IMG/VR virus record: IMGVR_UViG_2902759955_000002
Location: 64,001-128,000 of that record
Strand: one strand, 5' to 3'
DNA from: a virus
Lineage: Duplodnaviria; Caudoviricetes
DNA length: 64,000 bases
How positions within the stretch are numbered: position 1 is the first letter of the stretch; every line of letters begins with the position of its first letter. The notes under the pieces are model-generated. The model was not told the DNA's origin. It saw only the letters and a list, made by a program, of their open reading frames with translations, and did no database searches. The position numbers and the translations under genes were made by a program. Shown here piece after piece: positions 5,227 through 35,171 of the stretch.

Positions 5227-6345
5227 TCACGAGTTGTACAGAGCGACGGCCTTGGCAGCGATGACATCGAGCAAGGTGTTGGTCGTCGCGATGACTTCGG
5301 GAGAGGACACAATCCGGTCAGCCACGGACTTGGCACCAAAGACAGCATCAACCTTCAAACCGGATTCAGTCCGAAGGTCGCGTTCCATCACGGCACCGAA
5401 CACCGTTTTCAGCTGATTACCGAAGACGCCTTTGTCGCCGACACCCGCAGCCACATCCGTCGTCACGTAGAACTGGATGGCGGCGGTATCCGGTTGGAGC
5501 GGGTTACCCTCGACACGGAAGGCTTCATCCACGCTGCCGTTGTAGCCCCGTTTGCCCGCAGCTCGAGAGCGGCGGATCATGGCGACATCGGAGGCGGCAG
5601 CGAGTTTGCGCAGGGAATCGGACATGTCCTCCAGATCCCCGTGATAGAACACATCGATGCGTTCGATCTGCCCCTTGGTTTTGGCCTGGGGCGTTTGCGC
5701 ACTGAGCACCCGCAGTGTGTCGAGCGACTCCTCATCAAAGAGGCGATTGCCCGCGGTCACGGCGTCTTCGATGACGCATAAAATATCTTCCGCCCCCACG
5801 CGTTCGCCTGTTTTGCGCACCTTGTGGATTTCCTGATCGAAGTTCACGACGATGGTTCGCATCTTCGTGGTCTTCGTCGAGAGCAACTCGGCCACCTCTT
5901 TCGAGATGGCGGAAGAGTCTTCCAGCGTCACCGTTGCTTCCATGAACACCGTCTTCACGGTGATCCCAGCCTTCCACACCACACCACGGGGATTGAGCAC
6001 ATCGCGCTCGAAGAACCCTTCGTTGTAGCAAAGGAGTTCACCCGGCCTGAAGACCTGTCCGACCCGTACTGCCGGGTTGACCTGGTGCGGCACAATCAGA
6101 CCGGCCGCGTTCCCGTAGCGTCGACCCAGTTCGATACCCTGGATCTGACCATCGTCGTACTGCACCTGCATGCCTTCTGGCGTCACCGAAATCACCTTCC
6201 CAGGCTTCTTCGCGGTGAGGGCAAATAGATCACTCGTGCGATGCGCAATGACCTGCTCGTAACCGGTACGCAGCGACGCCTGGCGATAGCCCTTGCAGGC
6301 GATGCCGTGCGACTGCTGGATCCCGATAAAGTTGACCCGTTTTGG
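5227..6345 (-). CDS. virion RNA polymerase beta subunit (gp178-like), exon 2
   Basis: Begins PKRVNFIGIQQSH, continuing exon 1 ...DRDD in frame; contains RTGYE, EDSSAIS and VGDKGVFGNQLKTV beta motifs. Confidence 0.9.
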   Translation of the reverse strand, partial: PKRVNFIGIQQSHGIACKGYRQASLRTGYEQVIAHRTSDLFALTAKKPGKVISVTPEGMQVQYDDGQIQGIELGRRYGNAAGLIVPHQVNPAVRVGQVFRPGELLCYNEGFFERDVLNPRGVVWKAGITVKTVFMEATVTLEDSSAISKEVAELLSTKTTKMRTIVVNFDQEIHKVRKTGERVGAEDILCVIEDAVTAGNRLFDEESLDTLRVLSAQTPQAKTKGQIERIDVFYHGDLEDMSDSLRKLAAASDVAMIRRSRAAGKRGYNGSVDEAFRVEGNPLQPDTAAIQFYVTTDVAAGVGDKGVFGNQLKTVFGAVMERDLRTESGLKVDAVFGAKSVADRIVSSPEVIATTNTLLDVIAAKAVALYNS

Positions 6346-6654
6346 CTTTATGTCCACTCCGTTCGCGACACGGAGCCGGTGTGCTATGACACCCGCCATT
6401 GGCTTTCCCAATGGAGCAGACTATATCTTCCTCCCAGAGGGAGGGTTCCCATTTCCCAGTCGCTTGACCGGTACACCGTGATAAGCGGTTAGTCGTTGAA
6501 CGTTTCTCCCTTTCGGGAGCTTCGCTGCGGATTGCCCAATCCTCACCTTTGTTACCGTACCTGAGTGATTAGTTCAGCCACGACGCCATTACTGCCGTCG
6601 CTTGGTAAGTGAGGCTCTAAGGGGGTCCCCGTCAGTAAGAGAACATTCAGTCAC

Positions 6655-7665
6655 TCATTGCTGAGTAACCGGACCCTGCTTGTTGCTTGAACGATCGTTG
6701 TAATACTTGAACTTTAGTCCGTCTGGGAAAACCGTCTTCCCTTCGCTTTTGAGCCGATAGGTGAGTGCAGTGGGACGTATGCCGAGGGCCTTGGCACAAT
6801 CAATCGCGGACAGGAAGATTTGCTCCTCTCCGGATGACTGATTTGTCACCAGGACCACGCGTTTCCCACTGAAGATCTCGTGCTCGTAATAGGGGTTCTG
6901 CACGTCTCGCCACGGCGTCTTATCCTCACGCCATTTCAATTGATGCATACCACTGACCACGGGTTGATTGGGCGCTGTCAACCACTGTTGTACGGTCGGT
7001 AGAGCCACGTCGAGATAACCCGCAAGCTGAGTAAGGGAGTCAAACCCCCGCACCTCGCCCGTCATGACGTTACGAGCATCCACTGGTCTCGTTCTCCCAT
7101 ACCACGTGAGGAGATCGCCAACTGAGACCGGCCATTCACTACCTGCCGCAGCGAGTCGATACTGCTTTCGTTCGGGGTACACCCGACACGAGTCAGCTTT
7201 GACTCTCCACGCTATCGCATCCTTCGAAATGCCGAGCGATCTGGCGCATTCGATCAGACTTGCGTATTCGTCAACTTGTCCAGAGTCGACATCACGAACC
7301 TGAATGGGTAGACACTTTCGCGTCAGCCCCAGTCTCCCCGCGTGCTCCGCGTTCTCCTGGTACGTTACCCATTCTAGGTTGTCGAGAGAGTCATTCTCCT
7401 TATTCCCGTCGATGTGGTTCACCACTAGATCTTTGACATCCTTCCCAGGATGTTTGAAGACGCAAGCAAGTAAGCGATGGCGACCGATAAGTGCCGTCGT
7501 CCCGGCATCGGAGGTCATCGAAAGGTTGTAGTAACCATTCGCTCCTCGCCAGCCAACGACTTCCTCAAACAGCGGGTGACTAATCACCGACCCAGTCTTA
7601 TCGATCAAGTATTGCGAATATCCCGGTATCTTGAAGAAACCCGAGAGGTGACTAAGTTCTGGCAT
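6655..7665 (-). CDS. intron-encoded HNH homing endonuclease (I-HmuI-like: NUMOD4 + HNH + NUMOD1/IENR1 repeats)
   Basis: IPGYSQYLIDKTG N-terminus; HRLLA...VNHIDGNKENDSLDNLEWVTYQENAEH; three repeats YASLIECARSLGI, FDSLTQLAGYLDV, FLSAIDCAKALGI. Confidence 0.9.
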   Translation of the reverse strand: MPELSHLSGFFKIPGYSQYLIDKTGSVISHPLFEEVVGWRGANGYYNLSMTSDAGTTALIGRHRLLACVFKHPGKDVKDLVVNHIDGNKENDSLDNLEWVTYQENAEHAGRLGLTRKCLPIQVRDVDSGQVDEYASLIECARSLGISKDAIAWRVKADSCRVYPERKQYRLAAAGSEWPVSVGDLLTWYGRTRPVDARNVMTGEVRGFDSLTQLAGYLDVALPTVQQWLTAPNQPVVSGMHQLKWREDKTPWRDVQNPYYEHEIFSGKRVVLVTNQSSGEEQIFLSAIDCAKALGIRPTALTYRLKSEGKTVFPDGLKFKYYNDRSSNKQGPVTQQ

Positions 7666-7671
7666 TACAGT

Positions 7672-7697
7672 CTCCTATCCTTTACATACGATAGGAG
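7672..7697 (-). promoter_or_regulatory. RBS-sequestering hairpin with TATG in the loop
   Basis: Minus strand CTCCTATC-gTATGtaaag-GATAGGAG, 6 nt upstream of the HNH ATG. Confidence 0.7.
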
Positions 7698-7727
7698 GGT
7701 TAACTTCGTTTCAATACAAAAGCGTTA

Positions 7728-10700
7728 ATCATCCCGATCCGCCGCCGGCGAGAGCAGTGCCGAGGTTGAGAGCAAGGCGGTCACCCCGGACGTCTTCAGG
7801 TCGTAGCGGCGCGAGAGACCGCGCAGCGACGTGAACTGGGGATCCGCACTCGTGTAGGTGTTGATCGCCACATCGGACGAGTCGACCGTCGACTCAGAGA
7901 TGGTGCCCATGTCGTTCTCATGGTAGACACGGGTCTGCTTGGTCATACTGCGCGAGCCACGACCGCCGACACCGGAATAGGTGACCGCTTCCATCTCCTT
8001 CAGGTTCTGGATCGGGTTGATATCCGACACCTGAATCTTTGCCGGATCCTGGGTGACGTTCTTCCACACCTGGAACGGGTTCAGATCGATGGGCACGCGC
8101 GATTTGCCCGGCCGACCGTTGTGCACCCGGATAGAGCGCACGATCTCTGAATAGACCGCACCGGACATCCGCTCGTAGCCCTTGATCCGCATCCAGCGCG
8201 AATCGAGTTCATCGGGATGGGTATCCGTCAGGAGCATCTCGCAGGCTTTGAGCAGCAGGCTCTGATAATCGGTCGGCTCCTTCATGTCGATCAAGAGCTC
8301 CCGCGTGATCGGATCCACGAAGAGCTGGTACTGCAGATCCAGTTCCCGCAGATACCGTTGCGAGGCACCGCCCGACTCCAGCACATTCAGATACACGCCG
8401 CGCTTGTTGAACTCATGCAAGTTGTAGGTCCGGATGCTGCGGTGATACTCATTGAAGCCCGCCAGCACGAGGGACGCGTACATCTTGTCTTTCGGCAGCA
8501 CGAGCGTCTCATCGGCGAACACAAGGCTGTACTCGTTGGGCTGCAGGTTCACCCGCTGACCTGCTGGCACGCGCCGGGGCTCGACACCCAGGAACTTCAT
8601 CAGGCGATCCAGTCCCATCTCGTAGGCCAGCACGATCCCCAGGGGAATTGTCCGACCCAGCACCGATACTTCCGCAAAGTCCACCGGCGACTTGCTCGGA
8701 TCGAGCCCCAGCATCTCTTCGATGGAGGGCAGGTCGAGAGGGCGATGACGCTCACCCTTGTCGTACTGATAGAGCGCCCCCTGACGATCCATGATGAGAA
8801 ACGCATTGGGCTTTCGGAGGGACTTCCCGCAGACCACGATCCCGTCGCGCTCGATCATCGCGAGCGTGTCTTTCCCGTAGAGGGCTTCGCGCTTCGTGTG
8901 GTCGAAACTCCAGTCAAAGCCACCCAGCTGGAAACCCCGAAATGCCATGGCCAGCGTGCTATATAGGCGCGGTGCGGTGAAGAGGTTGTCGAACACCGCG
9001 GCGGTTTGCAGGTGCTGGACAATGGGGTTGCTCTTGTCCAGTCCGATGGCCGTGATGTTGTTCACGAGCCAGGTGCCGGAGTCGTTGACGCGTTTGGTCG
9101 AGCGTGAAACGAACACCTTGCCGTAGTAGCTGGTCAGTGCCACGCGGTCCGGGGCGATCTTGCGAATAGGCAAATCCCCCCGCTGCTTCCGTACCCGGTA
9201 CTTCACGCCATTGCTCGTGAAGGTCCCGTCTTCTGACAACACCGGCAAGCGGAACCGGAACGTCGACGAGGCGCCATCTACCGGCGTCACGCGTGCCGTG
9301 TAGACGTTGTAGGTTCCCATGACGTCATCGACTTCCTGCACGTCGTAGTCCGTCACGCAAAGTCCCGCCTGCTGCAGGTTCAGCACCATGCCCGCAATGT
9401 CTTTCTGCATCACGTGCTTGATGTAGTGCGAGTCAAACACATGCAGCGAGGACTTCAACATCGACTTGTCGGTCACCGTCTTGATGTCCGGAATCTCGGG
9501 AGAGGCCGGAATCGCGATTGCCTCTGCCGGGATTTTCACGAAGTCGGCCAGTGTCGACTTGCCGTCAGGGGCCACAATCTTCTTGTACGCTTCCGAGAGC
9601 GCCTGATACCGACGGTGTTCCCCCGCTGTGAGCATGCCTTGCTCAGCGAGGCGGTCACAGATTTTCATGACCGCACCATCCGGGGTGAGCGTACCCGGTG
9701 ACTCGAGGGGCCGCTGCATCGAGGCATCGTCTTCATCCGCATGGCTGATGTTGGCGATGTACTCGAGCTGGTCGAGATCGTGATCCATCTGCTTCTCGAC
9801 TTCCAGATCCGGCTTGATGTCGATGCCGCGCTCGGCCGGCTCGATGGCCTGATGCTGAATAACGTGCGCCACCTTGGCCGCGGCCTGTCGGTTCTGGTCG
9901 AGTTCCTCGTTGATGTCGGCATCCACCTGCTTCGGTGTGACGCCCAGTCCGTTGGGCACTTCGAATGGCTGCGAAACTTGCTTGACCGCGACGCCCGTCA
10001 GGGGATCGATGACGTCGACGACATTGCTCGGCTCATCTGGCGTCAGATCGCTCGGCGCGGATTCCGAGTCGCTTTGTGCCATCACTTCGGGCGCCGCGGT
10101 GGTGCGCGCCTCCATGAGGGACATCAGCATCTTCAGGAAGTAGCGCTGCAGCCGTTGCGGGGCGAGACCATGTTGATTCGCATCGGGGTCCGCTGCCAGT
10201 TCGGCTTCCGTCGCGACACGCCAGTCGTTGACGGTGCCAAGGTTCATGACAAACCAGCGGCCGCTTTCCTCGAACAGAAGATTGATGCGCGACAGACGCT
10301 TGTCGTCGACGTGCGAGAGCATCGACGTCTTCCGGTTCTCCCCCAGCCACTTCCAGATCTCCAGGATCATCAGTGACTCGTGCGAATTGAACCGCTTGAT
10401 GAGGCGCTGGTTCATGCCGCTGGCCGTCCCCAGATTCAGGTCAGCCAGACAGGGCAGGATCCGGGGCAGCGTAATCGGGATGAACTGATGACGGTTCGAT
10501 GTCTGGGCAATCTCACCCGCCACCGACCACATCGTTTCCGCGATGTTGTGCCACTGGCTGTACGCGGTGTAGAGCGAACGCGGATAACGGAACAGCCCCC
10601 AGAGGAAGGCGTAGTTGAACACGGCGAGCGTATTCTCGTCGCGCGTACCGACATCGAAGTTCAAGAGCTTCTTGTAACGACGATTGCGCTGGAACCACTT

Positions 10701-10973
10701 GGACGACAGCAGCTGCGTGGACGTCGGAATCGGACGGGGGTGACCCAGTTGGGCGCGCTGCTCGAAGACATGCTGCACGACGATGGGCTTGGTGACCCCG
10801 CGGAATTCCAGCTGGTTGGAATCGGGACCCTGATCGAGCGGGCTCGTGCCCATGAAGTGAAACAGACTGCGCTTGGGCAGATGCAGCTGCTCCACCAGCG
10901 GCATCGGGGGCGAGATCAGTTGGGACGTGCGCCGGATGCCGTAGTGCTGGTAAAAATATTCGTACAGAAACAT
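7728..10973 (-). CDS. virion RNA polymerase beta subunit (gp178-like), exon 1
   Basis: 1082 aa with RKQRGDLPIRKI, VALTSYYGK, NPIQNLKE, GGRGSRSM, SESTVDSSDV; ends DRDD at the intron. Confidence 0.9.
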
Positions 10974-34718: not shown

Positions 34719-35141
34719 TCAGTGCTTGACTGGCTTCGCGCCAAAGAGGGACTCAAGACCTTGGTAGTTCTCCAGCTGCGCGTTGGTGGCCGCGTCCGAA
34801 GCCGGCTGCACGGCGCTGGCGCTTGCAGGGACCGTGGGTTCCGCATCGTCGTCCTCAGCATCGGGCTCGCCGCGCGTGTCCTGAGGCAACTGCTTCTGCT
34901 TGGAGAGATGGTCGTAGGCGTTCTGGAGCTGCACATATTTATCCAGCAGCGTTACCAGACGAATGTCAGACCAGATATTGAGGACGTTGAAGGTGATGCT
35001 CGCCATGACGGCGATGCTGAAGATAGCGCGCCGGCGATTGGCGCGAAATGCTTCGCGCAAGCTCTTGCCTTCCAGCACCATTTCTTTGACGAAGGGCCAT
35101 GCGCTCCATACGAGCTTAAAGATGAACTCGATAAGGTTCAT
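34719..35141 (-). CDS. membrane protein
   Basis: Hydrophobic N-terminus and TM segment AIFSIAVMASITFNVLNIW. Confidence 0.6.
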   Translation of the reverse strand: MNLIEFIFKLVWSAWPFVKEMVLEGKSLREAFRANRRRAIFSIAVMASITFNVLNIWSDIRLVTLLDKYVQLQNAYDHLSKQKQLPQDTRGEPDAEDDDAEPTVPASASAVQPASDAATNAQLENYQGLESLFGAKPVKH

Positions 35142-35159
35142 AGGTCGACCCCGTAGTAG

Positions 35160-35171
35160 GTAATTTTATAG
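35160..35171 (-). promoter_or_regulatory. putative middle promoter motif
   Basis: CTATAAAATTAC on the minus strand upstream of the RNase H operon. Confidence 0.5.

Follow-up and report, generated by a model that had tools for sequence, protein, structure and literature searches.

An inverted, codon-phased likeness of exon 2 in the structured leader of a jumbo-phage intron endonuclease gene: a putative operator

A group I intron with an HNH gene in its P1 loop

The window analyzed here is a stretch of 64,000 nucleotides from a Caudoviricetes record (IMG/VR IMGVR_UViG_2902759955_000002, positions 64,001 to 128,000), with the gene content of a phiKZ-like jumbo phage and a G+C content of 59%, its kin being Ralstonia phage RP12 and Burkholderia phage FLC9. 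The same stretch occupies positions 129115-193114 of contig C11 in a bacterial assembly of 7.68 Mb and 129 contigs (99.97% complete), and the phage genome seems to have been co-assembled with, or carried by, the bacterial culture. The locus of interest consists of a virion RNA polymerase gene, an intron that splits it and an endonuclease gene carried by the intron:

Positions 7728 to 10973, minus strand: exon 1 of the gp178-like virion RNA polymerase beta gene (open reading frame list and intron-less relatives)
Positions 6346 to 7727, minus strand: group I intron of 1382 nt, last base G6346 (Rfam RF00028 core and splice borders)
Positions 5227 to 6345, minus strand: exon 2 of the gp178-like gene (open reading frame list and intron-less relatives)
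Positions 6655 to 7665, minus strand: I-HmuI-like HNH homing endonuclease gene, 336 aa (Pfam; PDB 1U3E by sequence and fold)

Exon 1 ends in ..SPAADRDD (open reading frame 10973-7725; last exon base U7728), and the frame that resumes at 6345 reads PKRVNFIGIQ... In three intron-less relatives, Burkholderia phage FLC9 and Ralstonia phages FLC4-3B and RP12, this junction is read through without interruption (..KDD-A/P-KRVNF..), and 7727-6346 is therefore an intron, whose removal restores the host reading frame without a gap. The only Rfam match in the 64-kb window is to RF00028 at 6396-6700 (47 bits, just under the cut-off of 50; E=4.9e-10); orthologous introns score 40.2-82.6 bits against the same core model, with 67.8 bits for the PhiPA3 intron. 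By its sequence, 7727-6346 is a group I intron and is predicted to splice. It is orthologous to the gp210 intron of PhiPA3, with which it shares its insertion point, after two aspartates of the gp178-like gene.

The HNH reading frame, whose ATG lies at 7665, matches the Pfam families HNH_3, I-HmuI_NUMOD-like and I-TevI_DNA-bd, and resembles I-HmuI (PDB 1U3E) both by sequence (E=2e-6, residues 13-114) and, as a structure model, by fold (E=1e-11, 179 columns). The model (mean pLDDT 83) has three repeated beta-beta-alpha-alpha modules past the nuclease domain, and the protein is of the I-HmuI type, an HNH nuclease domain followed by modular DNA-binding domains. Its nearest named relatives, in the Serratia phage 2050HW group (44% identity) and in PhiPA3 (gp210, 42.7%), are all intron-borne at the same point of the same gene, and across these orthologous introns the HNH proteins are only 29-48% identical. 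According to passages of Birkholz et al. 2024 (PMC11620839), the PhiPA3 orthologue gp210 nicks the intron-less gp178 gene of phiKZ.

We gathered 13 introns at this site from phage records, IMG/VR and metagenomes, comprising ten with an HNH reading frame, a 479-nt relic (L040) and two ORF-less introns (L041, 324 nt; L076, 390 nt). The relic (L040, the same as L070) retains the leader, the P1 extension described below (10 perfect bp) and the last HNH codons, and is therefore a deletion relic of an ORF-bearing intron. The search pattern used for relatives catches one core subtype only, and the window's own subtype was reached solely through phage phiKp_32 and a sibling intron. Counts over ten introns leave out L007 (a near-duplicate of L006), L021, L030, L036, L052, L063, L070 and L077 (same contigs as others), L039 (5' splice site outside the locus) and the leaderless, ORF-less L041 and L076; L050, which has a different leader, enters only the in-frame leader-versus-exon match count, where it has no copy. 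These ten introns are related and do not amount to ten independent trials, and their leaders were aligned by eye on a shared GAA, with the CZP anchor chosen with the exon in view. In 10 of the 13 introns the last 10-12 nt (6346-6358 in the window) keep the word GAAGAYNUYG, which reads GGACAUAAAG in the window and GAAGGUAUCG in L041, is replaced by something wholly different in L050, and is similar to the UGAAG of the leader and the GAAGAUAUAGUC of the core.

The RNA elements around the endonuclease gene are as follows:

Positions 6671 to 6675, minus strand: internal guide GGUCC (GUC/GUCC directly before P2 in 11 of 11 listed introns)
Positions 6651 to 6668, minus strand: P2 hairpin with a GCAA loop (read from sequence; equivalents in orthologs)
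Positions 7703 to 7723, minus strand: 5' strand of the P1 extension, intron nt 5-25 (cofold pairs and family covariation)
Positions 6678 to 6698, minus strand: 3' strand of the P1 extension, intron nt 1030-1050, within the last HNH codons (cofold and covariation)
Positions 7672 to 7697, minus strand: hairpin sequestering the HNH ribosome-binding site (MFE -12.7 kcal/mol, z -2.6)

In the ORF-less introns L041 (the same as L077) and L076, GGUCC stands 7-9 nt past the 5' splice site and is followed by P2 and the core, leaving a P1 loop of 7-9 nt; in the ORF-bearing introns some 1.05 kb separate the 5' splice site from GUC/GUCC, which again stands directly before P2. Because this position before P2 is kept throughout, P1 is formed by exon GAU with guide GUC, and the HNH cassette lies inside the P1 loop. 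In the window the guide GUC (6674-6672) pairs with exon-1 GAU (7730-7728), giving a P1 of 3 bp whose strands are 1.05 kb apart, with U7728 paired to a guide G and the intron ending in G6346 as a group I P1 calls for. The HNH stop codon UGA (6657-6655) falls inside the 3' strand of P2.

An ORF-less sibling group I intron lies in another gene of the same contig, about 8.5 kb beyond the window end (G000:C11:201651-201960, within L087 at 1483-1882; 80.7 bits), its core and 3' tail near-identical to those of the window's intron. The sibling has the guide GGCC for an exon that ends in GGCU, and thus the guide changes with the exon. As a different guide we considered GUUAACCC (intron nt 24-31) and rejected it, its G being absent in 2050HW, L009, L042 and L074, whereas GUC/GUCC before P2 is conserved; scanning every G for P1 partners yielded noise only. 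In the cofold, exon-1 GAUCGGG (7733-7739) can alternatively pair with UCCGGUU (6667-6673), overlapping the guide, for 7 bp as against the 3-bp P1. This pairing would leave the splice-site U unpaired, and it may trap the fold or be an energy-model artefact.

Next to the short P1, the leader folds back on the end of the endonuclease gene. Comparing leader nt 1-34 with the last 45 nt before the guide, we found that cognate strands pair far better than non-cognate ones (mean -16.9 vs -8.8 kcal/mol; 0/20000 permutations as good), and in nine of the ten introns the end of this helix is 1-4 nt away from the guide. In the cofold of the window's strands, 7723-7703 pairs with 6678-6698, and the start-codon region is paired just beyond. 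This P1 extension very probably closes the ORF-bearing loop.

Downstream in the leader, a stem of 7697-7690 with 7679-7672 holds TATG (7688-7685) in its loop and buries the GGAG at 7675-7672. The Shine-Dalgarno sequence lies in the 3' strand of such a hairpin in all nine leaders folded (z -0.4 to -4.8), and the lower stems covary among leaders. TATG is present in four of the nine leaders read (window, 2050HW, L009, L042), and the window holds 148 copies of this 4-mer. An AUG in the hairpin loop, in orthologs as well, meets a stop at once or a few codons on (AUG UAA at 7685-7680 in the window), and in L009 the UGA of the short frame overlaps the HNH AUG; the arrangement may be a mini-ORF or a start-stop ahead of the HNH gene.

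An inverted likeness of exon 2 in the leader

The original prediction had described part of this leader, read on the plus strand, as an inverted and codon-diverged copy of the intron's own downstream exon:

Positions 7696 to 7722, plus strand: inverted in-frame mimic of exon-2 codons 3-10, intron nt 6-32 (sequence and family comparison)
Positions 6316 to 6339, minus strand: exon-2 positions +7..+30 (RVNFIGIQ), the sequence that the mimic imitates, presumably the distal half of the homing site (sequence)

The sequence itself is as claimed. Plus-strand positions 7696-7719 read AGG GTT AAC TTC GTT TCA ATA CAA (RVNFVSIQ), and exon 2 at 6339-6316, two codons past the 3' splice site and 1.36 kb away, reads CGG GTC AAC TTT ATC GGG ATC CAG (RVNFIGIQ), so that 6/8 residues are identical on recounting. 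We likewise confirmed that 19 of 27 positions can pair with exon 2 (16 of them Watson-Crick) and that a TATG lies 8 nt from the segment. These same bases pair in the P1 extension and in the hairpin over the ribosome-binding site, and are thus first of all structural RNA, a role that the prediction had missed along with the placement of the reading frame in the P1 loop and the distant guide.

Could the likeness to exon 2 then be an accident of bases kept for the P1 extension and the hairpin, both of which are well supported? In the window alone, the base-level match between copy and exon (14/24 identical) is what chance would give (best 24-mer identity 14, dinucleotide shuffles averaging 13.3, P=0.37), and the leader/exon-2 duplex energy does not stand out from that of shuffles either (P=0.12; P=0.03-0.66 across five introns). 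By our own reading, UGAA-like words of the leaders also pair with UUCA in the conserved Y-Y-S codons at the HNH C-terminus. The in-frame match of 6/8, by contrast with the base-level one, was reached by none of 1000 dinucleotide shuffles. Within the window the exact pattern GTNAACTTYRT is confined to exon 2 and the copy (8 one-mismatch occurrences vs 6.9 expected), and a search of the remaining window for the leader block gave no more than chance, 2 matches vs 1.05 expected.

The family comparison speaks more clearly. As predicted, the inverted copy recurs in orthologous introns: the best in-frame 8-residue match is inverted and falls at the same exon place in 8 of the 10 ORF-bearing introns, with P<=0.02 for the leader's in-frame exon match in six of the ten. 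When the 14-nt block of ten leaders was inverted and slid along the exons, 90/140 cells were identical at exon-2 +7..+20; the runner-up among 154 placements (mean 35.9, sd 9.2) reached 61, which is 29 cells fewer. Over all 24 columns, identity in the ten introns is 147/240, and it is phased with the codons, at 56/80, 66/80 and 25/80 for codon positions 1, 2 and 3, which bears out the predicted codon divergence; identity at codon position 3 does not exceed chance (permutation P=0.37). Per-column conservation of the copy also mirrors that of the exon (r=0.76; r=0.63 with permutation P=0.0014 after removal of CZP and of the anchor columns). The copies track their own exons only weakly, with a cognate identity of 147/240 vs 138.8 in permutations (P=0.022).

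These patterns are difficult to reconcile with a purely structural origin. A covarying helix fixes no sequence, yet 122/160 cells at codon positions 1 and 2 are exon-like, and the structural account predicts neither the mirrored conservation profile nor the lead of the inverted placement. Furthermore, the P1-extension partner at the 3' end of the loop, compared with the exons in any frame, reaches a best match of only 3-4/8 (P=0.19-1.0) in 10 of 10 introns, and a direct copy of exon 2 was not found in the loop 3' end. As the partner strand lacks exon likeness, P1-extension pairing alone, which had been named at the outset among the findings that would undo the prediction, fails to explain the similarity. 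We therefore regard a purely structural explanation as unlikely and consider it likely that the mimic is real and under selection; judged from these sequences, it is probably a functional second layer over the structural role.

A second possibility raised by the original prediction was that the segment is a fossil of the entry of the HNH gene, left by a target-like site or by an inverted duplication of exon 2 and functionless today. In keeping with this, the copy belongs to the ORF cassette, as the ORF-less L076 equals the closely related L074 with intron nt ~11-1051 taken out; the copy persists in the ORF-less relic L040 (15/24); and the leader is low in G+C (37% vs 59% for the window). The suggestion that the copy derives from an AT-richer allele also fits, with 19/24 identities to L074, 18/24 to L009 and 17/24 to L059 vs 14/24 to the window's own exon. 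However, the HNH proteins have drifted to the 29-48% identity given above and the rest of the leader has diverged freely along with its pairing partner, yet the copy stays in register. An unselected relic should have faded, and the mirroring of the exon's constraint profile, biased columns or not, argues against a fossil, an explanation thereby weakened to one that we rate as improbable.

What may read the copy

If the copy is maintained, it could be read as RNA. The leader might pair with exon 2 as a remote P10 or clamp, or the excised intron might act, as the original prediction suggested, as an antisense RNA against the gp178 mRNA of a competing phage. Besides the 19/27 pairable positions in the window, 170/240 cells are pairable family-wide, a canonical P10 beside the guide would by our own reading have at most 1-2 bp, and the two possible duplexes of the window leader, taken alone, are about equally stable (-15.6 vs -14.2 kcal/mol). 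The comparisons nevertheless do not support such pairing. Leader/exon duplexes gain nothing from being cognate (-11.6 kcal/mol, vs -10.9 kcal/mol for non-cognate pairs, P=0.26; pair-count permutation P=0.094), third codon positions are identical to the exon at chance level as described above and paired in 25/60 cells across exon +8..+26, and wobble-compatible mismatches are not in excess of incompatible transitions (19 vs 16). In a cofold with exon 2 the leader prefers pairs within itself, leaving the RVNF stretch unused, and the gain of -6.8 kcal/mol compares with -12.5 kcal/mol for cofolding with the loop 3' end. The geometry differs from that of P10 as well, with the guide at 6675-6671, the copy at 7722-7696, a pairing that would start at exon +7, and no covariation; and the ORF-less introns L041 and L076 have splice-competent cores without the element. 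Pairing with exon RNA, and with it the antisense proposal, thus has little to recommend it, and we give it a small chance.

The copy could also be a promoter box. Published passages on phiKZ describe middle promoters with AAanTTACc about 24 nt before the start, some also with TATG, and a late promoter core, TATG, with the start at its G (PMC4666361). The family's leader block (AAGTTTAC-like) resembles AAanTTACc and could be such a middle promoter element for the HNH gene, in which case its reverse complement would spell V-N-F by coincidence; the window also holds one perfect AAAATTACC-N16-TATG at 35167-35139. Apart from that instance, on the minus strand (35139-35167; AAAATTACC, 16 nt, TATG), and the intron leader, the window holds no such pair. 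But the window's own block has two mismatches and is centred, by our count, 17 and not 24 nt before the G of TATG; box-like sequences are not enriched in the window (15 vs 13.5 expected; with TATG, 2 vs 1.5), and PhiPA3, the closest kin of phiKZ, fits worst. A promoter box would furthermore leave the I-Q codons and the 24-nt conservation mirror unexplained. The leader block does not have the form of a phiKZ middle promoter, and we consider this explanation very improbable.

What is left is a reader that would recognize the exon-2 positions fixed by the protein code while ignoring wobble positions, and the modular HNH encoded by the intron itself is the candidate that suggests itself. The site of I-HmuI lies mostly in exon 2, and by analogy the footprint of the window's HNH is assumed to reach into exon 2 too. 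The 27 bases are part of the leader of an HNH gene cassette set within the P1 loop. We propose that the I-HmuI-like nicking enzyme would read exon 2 through a string of helix-turn-helix modules; and that the same enzyme would recognize the inverted leader copy as a DNA half-site. Bound there, it would cover the TATG and the hairpin region directly upstream of its own gene. In the inverted copy, the place where the exon-1 side of the homing site would lie is, by our count, taken by the TATG and the hairpin loop. Since the exon-1 side is missing from the leader, the bound enzyme would not cut, and binding without cutting would amount to autorepression of the I-TevI kind.

That the mimic is an HNH binding site of this sort, a DNA half-site serving as an I-TevI-style operator, is our tentative preference, to which we would give a little less than an even chance. 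As in I-TevI-type operators, a homing-site-like sequence stands upstream of the endonuclease gene. The presumed start region, which the copy may overlap, has a TATG 8 nt away, a word found in only 4/9 leaders. In PhiPA3, the only member studied biochemically, the copy is weaker than anywhere else in the family (12/24 bases, 3/8 residues), cognate tracking is weak, and the structural roles alone could preserve part of the sequence. In addition, an in-frame exon copy sought in the leaders of three other HNH introns (phiKZ gp72, Totoro and phiKp_32) was found in none (P=0.29-1.0). Among the three meanings first proposed for the segment, operator or decoy, fossil and antisense RNA, the putative operator or decoy is the best. 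The overall outcome for the original interpretation is mixed: the copy is real, codon-phased, conserved and closest to AT-richer alleles, and its setting within the intron's fold had been overlooked.

Two of the introns searched differ in further ways. The same-site intron of Serratia phage Totoro (L083) encodes a different HNH (26% identical), and the last exon-1 bases (GTATGACGAT) recur in its leader, 24 nt past the 5' splice site, as an exact direct repeat of 10 nt, which may be another imitation of the homing site, in this case of its exon-1 half. In Klebsiella phage phiKp_32 (L081) the 3' tail of the intron is close to that of the window's, and the insertion seems to lie about 10 nt further downstream in the same gene; exon 1 continues through the P-K-R codons and the intron opens with UAAC, the splice sites being placed from protein alignment only. 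The site would be a second insertion point for the same intron lineage.

A further, quite speculative extension of the half-site proposal, to which we assign a low probability, is that the leader copy and exon 2 form inverted HNH half-sites bracketing the 1.36-kb intron, so that bound enzyme could loop the intron DNA or bridge donor and recipient. If so, the arrangement could tie an intron-bearing donor to a nicked intron-less recipient during co-infection, and the mimic would serve mobility and phage-phage interference beyond self-limitation. As it matches codon positions 1 and 2 only, a mimic of this kind would work against any allele of the gene.

Comparison with known systems

The window's endonuclease shares with I-HmuI of Bacillus phage SPO1 (1U3E) an N-terminal HNH domain and an extended modular DNA-binding tail, and is about twice its size (336 vs 174 aa), with its three repeated beta-beta-alpha-alpha modules. 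Like a canonical P10, the copy belongs to the intron, is close to the 5' splice site and is complementary to the 3' exon. Unlike P10, it lies 1.05 kb from the guide, starts at exon +7 and not +1, is already engaged in the P1 extension and shows no covariation with exon 2.

The closest relative of the whole arrangement is the gp210 intron of PhiPA3, which is inserted at the same point of a gp178-like virion RNA polymerase beta gene and has a group I core, an HNH reading frame in the same place and the same hairpin over its Shine-Dalgarno sequence; it differs in having the weakest copy, at 12/24. In passages of the paper on this system (PMC11620839) the endonuclease of a gp210-type intron is shown to be a weapon between co-infecting jumbo phages, and the same passages describe neither a P1-loop architecture nor an exon-like leader element. 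For this family our analysis adds an RNA architecture, in which the P1 loop houses the reading frame, a long covarying extension holds the 3-bp P1 together and a hairpin hides the ribosome-binding site, and a candidate control element, a half-copy of the homing site beside the endonuclease gene.

A precedent is the td intron of T4 and its endonuclease I-TevI, whose operator, according to passages of Edgell, Gibb and Belfort 2010 (PMC2988022), is 15/20 identical to the homing site and lies over a late promoter, together with hairpins that hide the ribosome-binding site. In td, as here, a homing-site-like sequence that misses the cleavage part stands just upstream of the endonuclease gene, and a hairpin hides the Shine-Dalgarno sequence in read-through transcripts, with a promoter, putative in our case, in or next to the hairpin. 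The enzymes are of different kinds, I-TevI being a GIY-YIG endonuclease that makes double-strand breaks and the window's enzyme an I-HmuI-kind HNH. Unlike the I-TevI operator, the window's copy runs in inverted orientation, is phased with the codons and also supplies a strand of the P1 extension, with the reading frame in the P1 loop. Binding and repression are established for I-TevI and predicted for the operator proposed here. Should the HNH bind the copy, autorepression of the I-TevI style would extend from GIY-YIG enzymes to the I-HmuI class, through a site adjusted to its target's non-wobble positions, and some 27 bases would serve three readers at once: the ribozyme fold, the ribosome and the nuclease.
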